Shown here: positions 1 through 6,229 of the stretch, in pieces
How the letters are laid out: each line of letters opens with the position of its first letter
Position numbering within the stretch: position 1 is the first letter of the stretch
Source: an uncultured archaeon
GTDB taxonomy: Archaea; Asgardarchaeota; Thorarchaeia; Thorarchaeales; Thorarchaeaceae
Assembly (NCBI GenBank): GCA_964354495.1
Contig: CAYHAA010000025.1
Coordinates: 1-23,732 of the forward strand
Reading direction: 5' to 3'
DNA length: 23,732 bases
Position numbers and translations under genes: made by a program
Notes under the pieces: model-generated
Database searches by the model: none
Told to the model about the DNA's origin: nothing
The model's input: the letters and a program-made list of their open reading frames with translations, nothing else

Positions 1-76
1 GACAACCTCAGAGTCCTGTTTCCCACCAGGGATATTTAAAGACCTACACGAATGGTTCACAGAATCATCTAAGGGA

Positions 77-118
77 TGTCCAACTTTGTCGAAGTCTTCA
101 GCAGCTGTTGCATACCCT
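77..118 (+). repeat. Site A: 42-bp copy of a non-coding repeated motif upstream of the surface-protein gene
   Basis: TGTCCAACTTTGTCGAAGTCTTCAGCAGCTGTTGCATACCCT; 35/42 identical to 3151-3192 in direct orientation. 75-95 matches the reverse complement of 3024-3044 at 18/21. Confidence 0.9.
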
Positions 119-375
119 CAAAGCCTCATATTGATTGGGTCCATTGAGATATTAAAGTTCAGGTGTACGAGGGCACACAGTTCAAGCTGACTGACGCATC
201 AACGGGCGCTGAGCGGTACTATGAACGACATTGCTTAATTAGCCGTTTGCCTGACAAAGAAACAAGAGTAGTATGCGTGGCTGATAGGTCTCCGATCTCT
301 CTCGAACAGATGAGGAGAAGGCGAGCAATCATGTTTTTGGAGTCTCAGCCAGCGCAACAGAGGAGGTCTCTAAGA

Positions 376-2913
376 GTGAATCTGGGAAGAGATACTAGCA
401 GGAAAGCACTGAGCATACTGATTGTGCTGGTGCTCGTAATGAGCTACGGAGGCTCGACAGCAACGAAGGGAGCTATTCCTTCTGAGCCTGAGAGCATGGT
501 CCGCAACAACCAGAGTATGTTGTCAGCTGGTCTGGAACGCTACACCGATGAGCCATTGACCGGATACGTTGAAGCGTGGTCAGGCAATAAGACAAGCGGC
601 GGTGTTGAGTTTACTAGCAACATCATAGGAGAGCCAGACGGCCTCCTCATGGAGATGTGGCTTATGTCGTCGTTTGAGTTTGCTGTCTTCAAGATTGACA
701 GCTCCATCATGAGCGACTCACTGACGCTAAAGGGATTCGTTGATGGCGGTGGTGTTGAAACGAATTTTGAAGTGTACAGCTGGGTCGACCCTTACACTGA
801 GCCCGAACTCGACGGAGTGACAAATGTCAGTATCAGCGACGATTGGTTCCTTCTTGGATTCAATATTGCAGCAGTCGGTGATGTCGTGCTCGAATATGCA
901 AACACATCTATCGAGTACTTGCTCCTGGTGGGACGGAATCCTACTGTAGCACCCGGATATTACCAATCACTTGACGCGATTGAGGTCCATGGGTTCACCA
1001 ATGTGATGGCAGACGAAGAGAATGATGGTCTTCCGGACATCTGGCAGTACCCTGATGTTGAGATGTTCAATGTTTCAATCGACATCGACCTGTTCGGTGA
1101 GACCTATGGCATCATGGGACTCGTGGGTGTTGCAGCTGAAGGGAGCACGAACCTAGACTTCCTTCTGCCCTTCATCAAGCTCGGAGTCATTGAGCCTACC
1201 GAGGTCGACGAGACCCATTACTACGTCATCTGTCAGGCTGAGCTCACACTTCCGTTCAGCGGGGTCAACGACTACCTCCAGTTTCTGAACTCCTACGACC
1301 TCGTGAACATGACCTTCATTGAGGGTAACGCTACCATACTCACTGAGACCATGAATGCATTTTCACACTACATCGGGCAGGATGACAGAATCAGGACCTA
1401 TCACGTCATAGACTACACTGTCGATGGCACCTTCAATCCTCACAACTACTACGCTGCCCAAGGTCAGATCAATGCAGAGTACACAACACTTGATACAAAG
1501 ACCGTCACACCAAAGACAGCTCAGGAGGAGTTCGACCTTGATGTCAGCATCGTGCTAGACATTGCGGAGAATGTCTTGGATGCTGTTCAGGGCGGCAAAG
1601 ACATGGCCACGCAGTTCATGAGCAAGATAATTGGTTTCATTCAGGGTAAGATGCTTGATGGCATCGGAAAAGAACTGCTTGAGAAGATAACCAAGAAAGC
1701 TCTCAAAACTGCTCTCAAGGCAATTTTCTCAATCACGACCATCAAGGACATCGTAGTCAAGGGCTCAAAGATTCTAGAGAAACTAGGAGTGGAGCTTCCC
1801 GACTGGCTCACCACAGCGCGTGACTTTGTTGAGAGCATCCCGTTCATCGACCCGCCAGTGGAGATCTGGAAGGTCCGACTGACCTTTGTGAACGAGACCA
1901 CGAGCCTGCCTGTCCTCGGATACGACTATATCAATAACGCATCCATCTACTCGCATCCGAAGGGTATCTACTTCGGAGATACCTACAGCGCGCAGGTGAT
2001 TCTGTCTTCCAGAGATATCTTCCCGGTGATAGGAAGGATTCAGTCAGTCAATGGGTCAAGGACTCTAACTGGCAATCTCTACGTGGAGGATCTAGGAACG
2101 CTTGAGGCGACGATGGCTAGGTCCTCGCTTGAACCAGGTGAGGCAGCAAGAGGAAGGATATACGCATTGCCGCCTGACGACATCCTTGTCATCAGTCAAT
2201 GCCACATCACAGCAGCACCAGGTCTATCCACAACTGTCGAGCTGGGCAATCTGTTCAATATCTCTCTCACAATCACTGATGAGAACGGAACACTGCTCTC
2301 TGATGTGTCAAGAGCCCGCGCAGCGATCAACAACATGCCCTATCCCATGATAGAACTGCCCATTGTGGCTGAGGCTGACGGAAGACTCACTCTGACAGTG
2401 GACACAGACACTCTGGGTGTGCTCCCCGGCGACTACATGGTAGCGGCAGTCTACAAACCAATGGCGATGTTCCACGACTACTGGAACTTCACGTTTGTCC
2501 TACAAGACACGGTAGCTCCGTACATCGGCAATCTGAATGGAATTGAGAGCGCGGATCACACAACAGTCGTCTTCAGTGCGATAGTCAGCGACTTTGACCT
2601 GAATATCAGCAGTGTCATACTGAAGACTATCGATGGCTCCGATAGCCTTGCTCTAGCGGTGTCACATCAGATGACCAGCAATGGAACTCACTACGTGGTC
2701 AGTCTTGCAGTAACGGACTTCAGTGCTGCAACTGTCTATTACAGGGTTGAAGCCGCAGACAATTCTGGCAACGAGGCTCAGACCCCACTGCAGTCGGTGA
2801 ACATCGTAGGTCTCTCTGAGCTGGGGCCACTTGGTATCTACATAGCAGCTGGGGTCGGTGCTGTCGCAGTAGTAGGTATTCTCCTCTACTTCATCAGACG
2901 CCCCGGACGCTAG
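376..2913 (+). CDS. Large membrane-anchored surface glycoprotein (845 aa): N-terminal signal/TM, acidic beta-rich domains, central Lys-rich helical segment, C-terminal Ig-like domain and TM anchor
   Basis: Long ORF (track 163-2913). GTG at 376 follows AGGAGG (361-366) and precedes the hydrophobic ALSILIVLVLVMS. About 15 N-x-S/T sequons. DEENDGLPDIW resembles a Ca-binding motif. It ends in LGIYIAAGVGAVAVVGILLYFIRR (TM plus basic tail). Confidence 0.85.
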   Translation: MNLGRDTSRKALSILIVLVLVMSYGGSTATKGAIPSEPESMVRNNQSMLSAGLERYTDEPLTGYVEAWSGNKTSGGVEFTSNIIGEPDGLLMEMWLMSSFEFAVFKIDSSIMSDSLTLKGFVDGGGVETNFEVYSWVDPYTEPELDGVTNVSISDDWFLLGFNIAAVGDVVLEYANTSIEYLLLVGRNPTVAPGYYQSLDAIEVHGFTNVMADEENDGLPDIWQYPDVEMFNVSIDIDLFGETYGIMGLVGVAAEGSTNLDFLLPFIKLGVIEPTEVDETHYYVICQAELTLPFSGVNDYLQFLNSYDLVNMTFIEGNATILTETMNAFSHYIGQDDRIRTYHVIDYTVDGTFNPHNYYAAQGQINAEYTTLDTKTVTPKTAQEEFDLDVSIVLDIAENVLDAVQGGKDMATQFMSKIIGFIQGKMLDGIGKELLEKITKKALKTALKAIFSITTIKDIVVKGSKILEKLGVELPDWLTTARDFVESIPFIDPPVEIWKVRLTFVNETTSLPVLGYDYINNASIYSHPKGIYFGDTYSAQVILSSRDIFPVIGRIQSVNGSRTLTGNLYVEDLGTLEATMARSSLEPGEAARGRIYALPPDDILVISQCHITAAPGLSTTVELGNLFNISLTITDENGTLLSDVSRARAAINNMPYPMIELPIVAEADGRLTLTVDTDTLGVLPGDYMVAAVYKPMAMFHDYWNFTFVLQDTVAPYIGNLNGIESADHTTVVFSAIVSDFDLNISSVILKTIDGSDSLALAVSHQMTSNGTHYVVSLAVTDFSAATVYYRVEAADNSGNEAQTPLQSVNIVGLSELGPLGIYIAAGVGAVAVVGILLYFIRRPGR

Positions 2914-2937
2914 GCTGAGCAGGTGGAAGAATCCGAT

Positions 2938-2971
2938 AAGGCAGGATGTGCGTTTGTCGCACTCTTGCCTT
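2938..2971 (+). terminator. Strong hairpin 24 nt after the stop codon (terminator or 3' stabilising stem)
   Basis: AAGGCAGGA-T-GTGCG / loop TTTGT / CGCAC-TCTTGCCTT: 14 pairs including one G-T, with one bulged T. Confidence 0.5.
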
Positions 2972-3004
2972 CTCACTCACTCTCTCCCACCGACCTCAGG
3001 AAAC

Positions 3005-3044
3005 TGCAACACCGTTCATTGTTAGTTGGACAAACTTGGACATC
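3005..3044 (-). repeat. Site C: inverted copy of the repeated motif
   Basis: Reverse complement reads GATGTCCAAGTTTGTCCAACT-N11-TGTTGCA. The core is 17/19 identical to site B and 18/21 to site A. The distal TGTTGCA of site A is kept, shifted by 2 nt. Confidence 0.85.
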
Positions 3045-3138
3045 GGAGTGCTGTCCGCCCAGGAAACGACACTGGGTTCGACTCCGTGAGGACAGAGTTC
3101 ATGTCAGGTCATCCTCACAGAATTAGTTCGGACCGAAC
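3044..3138. other. Densely self-complementary segment between sites C and B (candidate ncRNA or structured ssDNA)
   Basis: Stems CGGAGT/ACTCCG (3044-49/3081-86), CTGTCC/GGACAG (3051-56/3090-95), CCCAG/CTGGG (3058-62/3072-76), GTGAGGA/TCCTCAC (3086-92/3112-18), and palindrome GTTCGG-A-CCGAAC (3126-38). Confidence 0.4.
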
Positions 3139-3150
3139 AATATAAGCACC

Positions 3151-3192
3151 TGTCCAACTTTGTCCAAGTCTCTTGCAGCTGTTGTCAACCCT
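3151..3192 (+). repeat. Site B: 42-bp direct copy of site A
   Basis: TGTCCAACTTTGTCCAAGTCTCTTGCAGCTGTTGTCAACCCT; 35/42 identical to 77-118, starting 3074 bp downstream of it. Confidence 0.9.
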
Positions 3193-3215
3193 TATAGCAT
3201 GCCGCACCAATAGCA

Positions 3216-4112
3216 TCATCCAAGTTTCTGCTGAATTTCAGCAACTTTCACTCCTGTAATCGCCGCAAGGTCAAGTGTATGCTGATAGTCTATCAGGTAC
3301 TGTGCGATATTGTCTGAAGGTCTATGCGTTTCCAGTCTCCCTCTGATGAGTTCCACATATTCCGGGTCAATCTCGACGACAACGCAGCTTCTCTTTACTT
3401 GATCTGCCACAACTGCTGTGGTTCCTGTCCCGGCCATAGGATCAAAGACAACATCCTTGGGCATAGATGATGTGAGAATGATTCTGAGGAGCAGTGCGAT
3501 GGGTGTCTGCTGTTTGTGAATCCTGCTGCCCTCCTTGTCCCGGACAGCCTCATCCCCTGCGAAATAGCCAGAGGTCAACTCTCTGATGTCCTCCCAGATG
3601 TCTGTGACATACATTCCAGACTTTCGTTGACGCTTGTAGTTCGGCGGCAACGGCGGATCGATCCTCAGTCTGTTGAATACTCGTGGTCTCTCTCCCTTTG
3701 TGACAAAGGCAATGACCTGGTATTGCTTTCCATATCTCATGTTCGAGGGAACAGCGGAGGTCATCTTTCGCCAGATGATCAGATTCTGGTAGTTCCAGCC
3801 TGACTCTCTGAGGACTTTGAGAAGACGCTCGGTGTTCTTCTCTCGATGCATGAGATAGAGTGCTCCTCCCTGCGTTGTCACACGATGAATCTCGCTCACT
3901 ACGTCCTGTATCCAGTTCCAGTATTTCTCCGGGTCCTGTGAATCATCGAAATAGCTGTAGTCCTTTCCCTGATTATAGGGTGGGTCGAAAAAGGTCAGGT
4001 CCACATTCCTGACATGTCCCTCTCTGATGAAGTCTAGGCAGTTTCCAAGCAAGACCTCATGGTTAGGATTTTTCTTGACCACAGCATTCCACCCTAATCG
4101 GGGAAGTACCAA
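3216..4112 (-). CDS. Site-specific DNA methyltransferase, beta class (N6-adenine or N4-cytosine), with no adjacent endonuclease
   Basis: N-terminal catalytic DPPY, IIWRK, H...TP..LL.RII, and C-terminal SAM motif VFDPMAGTGTT...VEIDPEY. This motif order defines beta-class enzymes. The true start may be GTG at 4082. Confidence 0.92.
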   Translation of the reverse strand: MVLPRLGWNAVVKKNPNHEVLLGNCLDFIREGHVRNVDLTFFDPPYNQGKDYSYFDDSQDPEKYWNWIQDVVSEIHRVTTQGGALYLMHREKNTERLLKVLRESGWNYQNLIIWRKMTSAVPSNMRYGKQYQVIAFVTKGERPRVFNRLRIDPPLPPNYKRQRKSGMYVTDIWEDIRELTSGYFAGDEAVRDKEGSRIHKQQTPIALLLRIILTSSMPKDVVFDPMAGTGTTAVVADQVKRSCVVVEIDPEYVELIRGRLETHRPSDNIAQYLIDYQHTLDLAAITGVKVAEIQQKLG

Positions 4113-4255
4113 CTCTATGTCATAGTGACATATGCTGGCTTCTATGTATTCTGCTTTAGAACCGGCTATTGATATTCACATATTGCTCTGTTGACAATCA
4201 TTAAGTGGTATGGGACAAATCAAATACCGACACTGCTCGAGGAGGCGGGTCGTGA

Positions 4256-4981
4256 TTGAATCTAGGATACATCCTCTCTAAGGTATCAACTGCTGCGGCC
4301 GCTGTTGTTCTTTATCTGCCAGTCGTCGCTGGGATTATCACGCCCATGCTGTGGATTCTGCCGGCATGGTATGTATCTTGGTACCTCCTCTCCTATATTG
4401 TTCCTTTCTCGAACACATGGTCGGGCGTCTTCACTGTGTCATGGGACCCTGTTTCCGGCTCTGACAACGTTATGATTGTAGTCGCTTTCTGGCTCTTTGG
4501 ACTAGCAACATTCATAGTCGGCTCTGGACTCTTTCTCTACGCCTTGGCAACGATGGTCCGCGCTCGTTCTTCTACGAGCGAACTTATCACTTCAGGTCCC
4601 TACAGATGGATTCGGCATCCCCAACATCTTGGCATCATCCTCATGCTCTTCCTTCTTGCATTCCATATCGATGGCTTCGATTCTGTCGACATCCGTCTGG
4701 GTAACGTAGTTTCACTCTCTTCACTTGTCCTTCTTCTGGTTCTCGTAGCAGACATCGAAGAGATTGGTCTATCCAAGAAGTTTGGCGATGATTTCCTGAA
4801 CTACAGTCTGAATACTCCATTTATGCTGCCTCTTCGAGTTCCGAGCTCAATCAAAATGAAACTACCAGCTGTTCTCAACCGCAGGTCTGTCCGGTATCTG
4901 CTGGCTTTTGTGCTCTTCTGGTCTGTGATGACCCTGTTGTCGTATGCCTTCACGTTCCTGCCTCTGTTCTATGTACGATGA
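4256..4981 (+). CDS. Isoprenylcysteine carboxyl methyltransferase (ICMT/PEMT) family membrane protein
   Basis: Multiple TM helices; LITSGPYRWIRHPQHLG and EE..L.KKFG..F..Y...TP signatures; GGAGG at 4241-45 before TTG. Confidence 0.85.
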   Translation: MNLGYILSKVSTAAAAVVLYLPVVAGIITPMLWILPAWYVSWYLLSYIVPFSNTWSGVFTVSWDPVSGSDNVMIVVAFWLFGLATFIVGSGLFLYALATMVRARSSTSELITSGPYRWIRHPQHLGIILMLFLLAFHIDGFDSVDIRLGNVVSLSSLVLLLVLVADIEEIGLSKKFGDDFLNYSLNTPFMLPLRVPSSIKMKLPAVLNRRSVRYLLAFVLFWSVMTLLSYAFTFLPLFYVR

Positions 4982-5082
4982 GACAACTGCCAACAGAAAG
5001 GATCCGGCATCATTCTTCAGGATTTGTAAGGGCTATCACCAGATTGACGTATACTGTACTCACAATGCACTAAATCGATAAT

Positions 5083-5096
5083 GTAAAATTATATAA
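5083..5096 (+). promoter_or_regulatory. Archaeal BRE/TATA promoter for the HxlR-like gene
   Basis: GTAAAA followed by TTATATAA (5089-96), 42 nt upstream of ATG 5139. Confidence 0.6.
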
Positions 5097-5138
5097 CACA
5101 TTGTTACGCAATCATCTATCAGTTGGCGAAGTACAACC

Positions 5139-5519
5139 ATGATTTTGGGTGAAACAACTCATTATAAAACAACCGAACCCTTGACTGAGATATTCTCTCA
5201 TCTTGGGCGTGCCTATACAGTACCTCTCATTCTTGCGCTTGGTGAGCGTTCGTGCAATATCGATGTTCGCGAGCTTCAGGAGAGCATTGACTCGGGAAGT
5301 GGCAGGAGACTCAATGAGTCGACCATCTCGAAATGCCTCACGGGTCTCGTCGGACTTGGTCTTGTTGAGGGGACAATACCTGCACACTCTGCTTCAGTAG
5401 CAGAATACAGTCTGACCTCTGCAGGTCAGCAGATCTATAGACACCTCCTCCAGATTCGTCATGTAGCTGAAAGAGCTAACGATGACGAGACCTTCCTTGA
5501 CAGTGTGTCGGCCTGCTAA
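5139..5519 (+). CDS. HxlR-like winged-helix transcriptional regulator
   Basis: 126 aa; pattern IL..L......ELQ..I.....STISKCL..L...GLV........EYSLT..GQ. Confidence 0.75.
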   Translation: MILGETTHYKTTEPLTEIFSHLGRAYTVPLILALGERSCNIDVRELQESIDSGSGRRLNESTISKCLTGLVGLGLVEGTIPAHSASVAEYSLTSAGQQIYRHLLQIRHVAERANDDETFLDSVSAC

Positions 5520-5541
5520 GAAACCTTTCCAGACTGTCCGA

Positions 5542-5578
5542 TTCAGGGTCCCTCATGGGCCCTGAAACCCTACTTTTT
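5542..5578 (+). terminator. Hairpin plus T-tract after the HxlR-like gene
   Basis: TTCAGGGTCC-CTCAT-GGGCCCTGAA (10-bp stem, one G-T pair), followed by ACCCTAC-TTTTT. Confidence 0.55.
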
Positions 5579-5726
5579 CTATTAGCCATTTTTCCATTGC
5601 TTCAGATTCCCACAGCCTTAGCAATATGGAATTGCTGAAACCAACGCAATTCTTTATTTGACAACTATGCATATAGTACACGACGCAATGGTGCGTCCTG
5701 TGAACAAGTGTGAGTAAGGGATTCAA

Positions 5727-5975
5727 ATGCAAATTAAGAAAAGAGATGGTTCGCTCGAGCCATACATGCCAGAGAAGGTAGTAGTCGCCGCAGTGAAGTG
5801 CGGTGCTCCGTATCAGACTGCACGTGACATTGCTGCCTCGCTGTCAAAAAGACCCGAGAGTGTCATGAATGCCACCGATGTCAAAACATACATCCTGACC
5901 GAACTCCGTTCGAAAGGTGCAGCGAAGGCTGCTGATAATTGGGAAGCTTACGATCGCAAGCACAAGAAGAAGTAA
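5727..5975 (+). CDS. Stand-alone ATP-cone domain protein
   Basis: 82 aa; the N-terminus MQIKKRDGSLEPY..EKV is the ATP-cone signature (V.KRDG..E.F...KI). Confidence 0.85.
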   Translation: MQIKKRDGSLEPYMPEKVVVAAVKCGAPYQTARDIAASLSKRPESVMNATDVKTYILTELRSKGAAKAADNWEAYDRKHKKK

Positions 5976-6229
5976 GTTCTGGAAGAAGGGTTCCATTTAC
6001 TGGTTTGAGAGTCTGCATCAGAAACGCGTCATTCTTGACATGAGCTTTGATATCATCAAACCGCTTGCCTAGATGATACTCTATTTGACAGAGTTGCACT
6101 GTGATTGCAGCGCATCTCGCGGTGTTCCCTGTCTGAGAATCATCATTGATGCATATAGTTGAAATATCTGCTCTGCTTGATTGCAGAAAGGATGGTCAAG
6201 TACCACACAGGGTCGGTGGGACAGGACAC

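Follow-up and report, generated by a model that had tools for sequence, protein, structure and literature searches.

Three Repeated Sites in a Thorarchaeota Contig Read as the Ends of Two Gene-less IS607-Family Mini Elements

Introduction

The ends of IS607-family insertion sequences carry no terminal inverted repeats. They contain short direct repeats located 20-60 bp from the tip, which are helically phased in IS1535, and often an imperfect inverted repeat that lies at unequal distances from the two ends, while GG forms the termini, insertion is at (G)GG, and the target is not duplicated (PMC6188088). An IS607-type TnpA excises the element as a circle and integrates it at a GG core, with a preference for 5'-TGGG that coincides with the transposon-associated motif (TAM) of TnpB (PMC10690162). 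Gene-less elements that retain the omegaRNA are already known for IS605 (PMC10055086). In the present work, we analyze a stretch of 23,732 nucleotides, referred to as the window, which is contig C25:1-23732 of a 3.3-Mb, 51-contig Thorarchaeota genome (G000) and in which the motif TGTCSAAnTTTGTCSAA occurs three times around the gene of an 860-aa protein. With a probability of about 0.92, the three sites represent transposase-binding subterminal repeats that belong to two IS607-family derivatives of Thorarchaeota, both non-autonomous and similar to miniature inverted-repeat transposable elements (MITEs), and the 860-aa gene is a bystander.

Results and Discussion

Repeated Sites and Their Copies in the Genome

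A search of the window with the pattern TGTCSAANTTTGTCSAA, allowing up to two mismatches, locates the motif at 77-93 on the plus strand (site A), at 3026-3042 on the minus strand (site C), and at 3151-3167 on the plus strand (site B). Only 0.04 matches are expected by chance, and 0 of 100 shuffled sequences reach three. This confirms the three copies reported in an earlier note on the same DNA, which had also correctly recognized the 10-bp phasing of the two heptamers, TGTCCAA and TGTCGAA at site A. According to the repeat finder, A and B form a direct repeat of 48 nt with 81% identity and a spacing of 3074 bp, A and C form an inverted repeat of 19 nt with 89% complementarity, and C and B form an inverted repeat of 17 nt with 94% complementarity and a separation of 108 nt. 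The A/C inverted repeat and the A/B direct repeat bracket just the 860-aa gene, which favors the view put forward in the earlier note that A and C are the ends of an element or of an invertible segment enclosing the gene, that A and B allow the excision of a one-gene cassette, and that B begins a further unit bearing a methyltransferase gene.

Throughout the genome, the motif is found 26 times with at most one mismatch, compared to 0 times for a reversed control pattern, and about 45 real copies are obtained when two mismatches are allowed. These copies are arranged in inverted pairs whose members are 125-156 bp apart, and in each pair one member is always followed by ..ACAATGAACGG and the other always by some 25 nt ending in ..CCC, amounting to about 20 mini elements. 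The borders were analyzed for 18 units that were printed with their flanks. They are sharp and common to all units, and the sequences beyond them are unrelated. The GGG../..CCC side is designated the left end (LE) because it stands next to tnpA, and the ..AACGG side the right end (RE) because it stands next to tnpB. The LE tip reads (A)GGGT.., with GGG in 18/18 units and the preceding A in 14/18, while the RE tip reads ..ATGAACGG(T), ending in ACGG in 17/18 units and being followed by T after the GG in 17/18. As judged from these letters, the target or the TnpB TAM may be as long as AGGGT. At the LE the heptamers, 10 bp apart, are found 25 nt from the tip, compared to 14 nt at the RE, and the two tips (GGGTTGACAAC and CCGTTCATTGT) are scarcely alike.

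These borders also bear on the idea that the motif serves a host transcription factor as its operator and is not a mobility site. A short phased repeat close to TATA-like boxes could be understood in this way, and in full-length copies the motif overlaps the promoter region of tnpA, where autoregulation by TnpA is plausible as an added role. However, the motif is always contained in the same 180-215-bp unit with sharp borders, it is located at the 3' ends of genes here, its occurrence among congeners is patchy, and empty sites exist, so we give the operator explanation almost no weight.

Borders of the Two Elements

A single 180-bp element has site C at its right end and site B at its left end, and neither of these sites is a partner of A. 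This element (element 2) is a complete, gene-less mini element of the IS607 family, of what we call the B type, and it spans 3012-3191 on the minus strand, with its limits set independently by BLAST matches, sister copies, and the divergence of contigs. Its RE (...AACGG) ends at 3012 and its LE has GGG at 3189-3191, the ambiguity being confined to the shared GG(T). Site B, the left-end pair of 7-bp repeats, begins 25 nt from the LE terminus, and site C, the right-end pair, begins 14 nt from the RE terminus. The BLAST matches of element 2 in 17 congeners begin and end at window positions 3011-3193, the sister copies on contigs C4 and C1 are 92-94% identical to it, and metagenome contigs with other copies part from the window sequence at 3011 and 3192/3193. 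The element occupies the convergent spacer between the 860-aa gene and an N6/N4 DNA methyltransferase gene. One metagenome contig, from run X3, tracks the surface-protein gene as far as 3011, continues with 40 differing letters, and then enters the right end of element 2. This suggests a related strain in which the arrangement of the element, or of its flank, is slightly different.

Site A belongs to element 1, which is cut by the start of the contig. Positions 1-117 (minus strand) constitute the left-end half of an A-type mini IS607-family element that would be about 215 bp long if complete, with the LE terminus GGG at 115-117 and site A as its left-end repeats. The window sequence up to 118/120 is 91-92% identical to the complete minis C27:14591-14710 and C8:83707-83823, the likeness stopping at the LE tip (118-120), and a metagenome contig parts from the window at 118. 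Site A thus marks the LE of an element that belongs to another subfamily than element 2 and whose right half is on another contig. The end of contig C6 and the start of C42 are within one base of the position complementary to the window start, inside the A-type element. The assembly therefore broke in the repeat, and the C6 end or the C42 start is probably the left neighbor of the window. In total, six contig ends fall inside A-type minis, namely the window start, the C6 end, the C42 start, the C35 end, the C36 start, and the C8 end. Metagenome contigs of run X3 break at 118, 142, 184, and 202, which suggests that the spacer separating the A-type element from the start of the gene varies at the strain level.

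The earlier note had added to each array a third unit, TGTTG. In A and B this string does belong to a conserved left-end stretch, CAGCTGTTG, while beside C its presence is coincidental, because it is located in flanking DNA past the element border. As a third binding repeat TGTTG was therefore rejected, and it is kept only as conserved left-end sequence.

Elements 1 and 2 are oriented alike, with tips that point away from the 860-aa gene, and the gene therefore lies between two insertions. The cassette or invertible segment is extremely unlikely on this evidence. On the sides of A and C that look away from the gene there are conserved element sequence and GG termini, C pairs with B at 125-156 bp in about 18 genomic copies, and in IS607 an LE and an RE act together, the repeats being inside the element. 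Homologues of the gene with 70-75% nucleotide identity in the genomes G017, G002, and G041 have no motif nearby. In favor of the cassette, the distribution of the gene is patchy, as the 860-aa protein query gives no match in G012, G024, G007, G011, and G015, genomes that are incomplete, so that absence is not shown. Nor does the locus resemble integron-like or shufflon-like systems, considering that the termini face away, that the window has no recombinase, and that alternative junctions are not seen, the last point being weak as it concerns contigs only. In four metagenome runs, contigs on window positions 1-4300 display no A/B deletion, A/C inversion, or excision joints; being contigs, they are silent on rare forms. 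Nothing points to inversion or phase variation.

We have also considered a composite mobilization, in which the LE of element 2 (3191) and the off-contig RE of element 1 would move a block of about 3.4 kb with the gene as passenger. Both left ends read the same way, the gene is patchy among congeners, and serine-recombinase excision needs just a correctly oriented LE and RE. However, the block is not seen a second time, minis do not flank the gene in any relative, the contig ends at the left flank, and two independent insertions near a variable gene are simpler. Such a composite is very unlikely.

Empty Sites and Distribution

For element 2 itself, the orthologous empty site is not covered, since in the closest congener the relevant contig (G012:C66) begins 45 nt past the left end. 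In other congeners the 860-aa gene is in a different neighborhood, and the empty sites were therefore taken from the two sister copies on C4 and C1. Their 700-bp flanks were compared with G012 and are 90-95% identical to it, and in both cases they are contiguous there, at C30 about 30318-30324 and at C37:41211-41212. The first site reads ..GACTGA-CC-CTTCC.. when empty and ..GACTGA-CC-[element]-CC-CTTCC.. when filled, and the second reads ..CTCTA-GG-ATTCC.. when empty and ..CTCTA-GG-[element]-GG-TTCAG.. when filled. The flanks being joined in G012 at the level of single bases, the insertions took place at GG, and apart from the shared GG(T) no duplication is present. The remark in the earlier note that a clean target-site duplication is lacking is correct.

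The RE pattern is present in 13 of the 24 congeners, with 0 to 18 copies each, and in 0 of the 16 genomes from outside the genus. Such a patchy distribution is typical of a mobile element.

The Autonomous-Type Copy and Its Enzymes

On contig C24, the same two ends are found 3.2 kb apart (C24:10672-13864) and enclose tnpA and tnpB. The TnpA of 200 aa (C24:10745-11344) has a Resolvase domain (2.2e-21) and an N-terminal helix-turn-helix region (HTH_17, 4e-06; MerR, 1.5e-05), and its best solved relatives are the IS607-family TnpAs of ISC1904, ISC1926, and IS1535, with the catalytic Ser aligned. The TnpB of 504 aa (C24:12318-13829) matches Cas12f1-like TNB (2e-13), and its stop codon is about 35 nt before the RE terminus. 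The RE of this copy (C24:13833-13863) matches the site C region of the window at 29 of 31 positions. Copies of 375 and 485 bp, which retain only the 3' end of tnpB, bridge the full-length and the mini forms. There are also larger relatives (C1:3-7970, C3:77035-84799, and C22+C44), in which an open reading frame (ORF) of 1,800-1,900 aa is divergent from a TnpB of 670-730 aa. Only two Resolvase-domain genes are present in the genome, on C24 and C22, both of them in a D-type element. This agrees with the earlier note, which found no recombinase in the window, as does the ORF list, and placed the enzyme in trans.

The relatives of this TnpA come only from metagenome-assembled genomes (MAGs) of Candidatus Thorarchaeota or uncultured archaea, plus one Promethearchaeota fragment. 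At 10 of 12 loci from other Thorarchaeota MAGs, a double heptamer, TTGGACAnnnTTGGACA on the coding strand, is located 46-48 bp upstream of the tnpA start, with a GGGTTG..ACAGC tip about 24 nt further out. This position is as would be expected for the transposase's own binding site, and the motif is possibly also the operator of tnpA. We infer that the heptamer pairs at sites A, B, and C are TnpA-binding subterminal repeats. The earlier note's interpretation of phased repeats as transposase-binding ends of a mobile element is in this respect supported.

Between tnpA and tnpB, on the opposite strand, C24 carries an ORF of 320 aa without a Pfam family (C24:11353-12312). Homologous stretches are found at C22:361-1305 and at C7:24406-25347, the latter within a 1,253-aa ORF. 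Contigs C1, C3, and C44 have ORFs of 1,100-1,900 aa divergent from TnpB, of which only a weak match at C1:501-779 ties any to the 320-aa ORF. The 320-aa ORF therefore resembles what a deletion would have left of the giant gene in a parent element of ~8 kb.

Predicted RNA Scaffold

The part of element 2 next to its right end (3012-3117, minus strand) is predicted to form a structured RNA, a probable scaffold of a TnpB omegaRNA. We aligned 51 distinct RE-proximal pieces of 112 nt, 13 of them from this genome and 38 from 12 congeners. RNAalifold predicts three stems, which in the window correspond to 3117-3111 with 3093-3087 (stem 1), 3086-3081 with 3049-3044 (stem 2), and 3077-3072 with 3062-3057 (stem 3), all on the minus strand. 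Compensatory changes are seen in 8 of the 19 pairs, and 96.4% of the cells are paired on this structure. Changes on both sides of a pair occur in 58 cells, compared to 16.3 ± 3.0 in shuffled alignments (0/500 reach 58) and at most 10 in slid controls. The G-U pairs, of which the 8 at columns 46/88 and the 38 at columns 18/38 are examples, are compatible only with the strand that has the sense of tnpB.

A TATA-like box is read from the sequence at 3140-3145 on the minus strand of element 2, about 26-28 nt upstream of stem 1, and the A-type element has another at 33-40 (minus strand), which precedes the 5' arm of stem 1 (window 2-10, minus strand) by about 26-30 nt. The spacing from the TATA box to stem 1 is kept in the A and B types, even though the distance from the box to the LE repeats differs by about 30 nt. 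Both boxes are putative promoters, and the right-end half of the minis is probably a self-promoted TnpB omegaRNA scaffold. By analogy with the omegaRNA organization of IS605 and IS607 (PMC10690162, PMC10055086), the DNA that flanks the RE of element 2 on the minus strand, from 3011 to about 2992, would be the guide portion.

A competing explanation is that the minis are plain MITEs, whose conserved stems are not a working guide RNA but a relic of the 3' region of the parent element or a feature acting at the DNA level. The scaffold is short, about 105 nt, and stem 3 is the only one that the full-length, autonomous-type D copies have in common with the minis, which is also a caveat for the guide-RNA interpretation. 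On the other hand, the compensatory changes in three stems over 51 copies, the strand-specific G-U pairs, and the TATA-to-stem-1 spacing conserved across two subfamilies with differing LE-to-TATA distances are better accounted for by a guide RNA. We therefore consider the plain MITE a serious contender but the less likely of the two.

The GGTTCGA-like string between C and B hints at a tRNA or tRNA fragment. This candidate was dropped, as ARAGORN gives none there, and no tRNA is found by it in the window.

Weighing of the Assignment

Taken together, the assignment of the three sites to two IS607-family minis leads to the following mechanism. A serine-recombinase TnpA made elsewhere, from C24 or C22, would use its N-terminal MerR-like domain to bind the heptamers and would bring the two ends together. 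Exchange at the GG core would then release the element as a circle, which the TnpA would reinsert at another (A)GGG(T) site with no target duplication. The right-hand two thirds of the mini probably give the guide-RNA scaffold from its own TATA box, in which case TnpB acting in trans with the scaffold RNA would cut the emptied donor site, the element being restored by recombination.

Several points weigh against this assignment. Neither TnpA nor TnpB is encoded inside the window, and no autonomous copy was found in this genome whose left end is exactly of the B type or the A type. Cross-mobilization of the A- and B-type minis by the D-type TnpA is thus assumed, because both Resolvase-domain genes sit in a D-type element, and the binding of TnpA to the heptamers is a prediction for this Thorarchaeota family. 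As to the RNA, no Rfam family reaches its gathering score anywhere in the window, and none matches the scaffold. The single-sequence fold of 3012-3135 (minus strand) has a z of -1.15, no better than shuffles. This fold is uninformative on its own. The RNA claim rests on covariation, and the copies that were aligned are mutually related, a kinship that inflates the covariation counts. Among the public sequencing runs no RNA run is listed, and the best runs carry 0.28 of the sampled words.

A bolder view of the locus would be a composite serine-recombinase transposon that moves a host gene or, in a milder form, minis that are dispersed, self-promoted guide-RNA genes, each recruiting TnpB made elsewhere and thereby defending its own insertion. 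We regard this as quite improbable.

Neighboring Genes

The 860-aa protein gene (331-2913, plus strand) encodes an N-terminal hydrophobic segment and a C-terminal membrane anchor, has no Pfam family, and is located between the elements as part of neither. On the other side of element 2, the N6/N4 DNA methyltransferase gene (3216-4112, minus strand; PF01555, E 3e-43) has its stop codon 25 nt from the element's left end and is outside the element. The proposed unit that would begin at B and carry the methyltransferase is, like the cassette, extremely unlikely.

In G017 (contig C178), a homologue of window positions 5727-5984 stands immediately before the homologue of the 860-aa gene; here that segment is located about 2.8 kb downstream of the gene. 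The block 3216-5600, which holds the methyltransferase gene, may therefore have been inserted or rearranged later.

Comparison with Known Systems

What had appeared in the earlier note as an undescribed cassette turns out to be two ordinary IS607-type mini insertions, whose exact borders are now available for annotation, so that a false lead is avoided. The elements explain assembly breaks at several contig ends, including the window start. They also provide a natural data set in an Asgard archaeon, with about 20 copies in this genome and dozens in congeners, along with empty sites, on which one could examine the reading of phased heptamers by a serine TnpA, whether the AGGG target choice coincides with the TnpB TAM, and whether a self-promoted guide RNA is retained in gene-less elements.

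The window minis are a Thorarchaeota mini form of the already known IS607/TnpB kind. With IS607 of Helicobacter pylori, IS1535 of Mycobacterium tuberculosis, and ISC1926 and ISC1904 of Sulfolobus, the family shares the serine TnpA with an N-terminal MerR-like domain together with TnpB, the absence of inverted repeats at the tips, the phased subterminal direct repeats at unequal distances, the GG ends, and the lack of duplication. Two of these features, the serine TnpA with its MerR-like helix-turn-helix and the tnpB beside the right end, are found on the C24 copy, while the minis themselves have the GG termini, the GG target without duplication, and the phased subterminal repeats without true terminal inverted repeats. 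They differ from the described members in that the window copies are gene-less (180 and about 215 bp), in the TGTCCAA repeat, and in their Thorarchaeota lineage, and the larger relatives in this genome add a giant ORF of 1,800-1,900 aa.

The IS607-type IStron of Clostridium botulinum (PMC10690162) has an omegaRNA that overlaps its right end, to which the predicted structured RNA abutting the right end and the (A)GGG flank consensus correspond here. In contrast, the IStron contains a group I intron, of which there is none here, and the present element is archaeal and gene-less, with TAM and guide use that can be predicted from the analogy. A second comparison is with the PATE-like gene-less IS200/IS605 elements (PMC10055086), which likewise consist of a minimal LE plus RE, are mobilized in trans, and often carry a guide RNA that needs a TnpB from elsewhere. 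Those elements, however, use a Y1 HUH transposase on single-strand hairpin ends and have a TAM-specific target, whereas the window minis belong with a serine recombinase, carry phased repeats in double-strand ends, and use a GG core.

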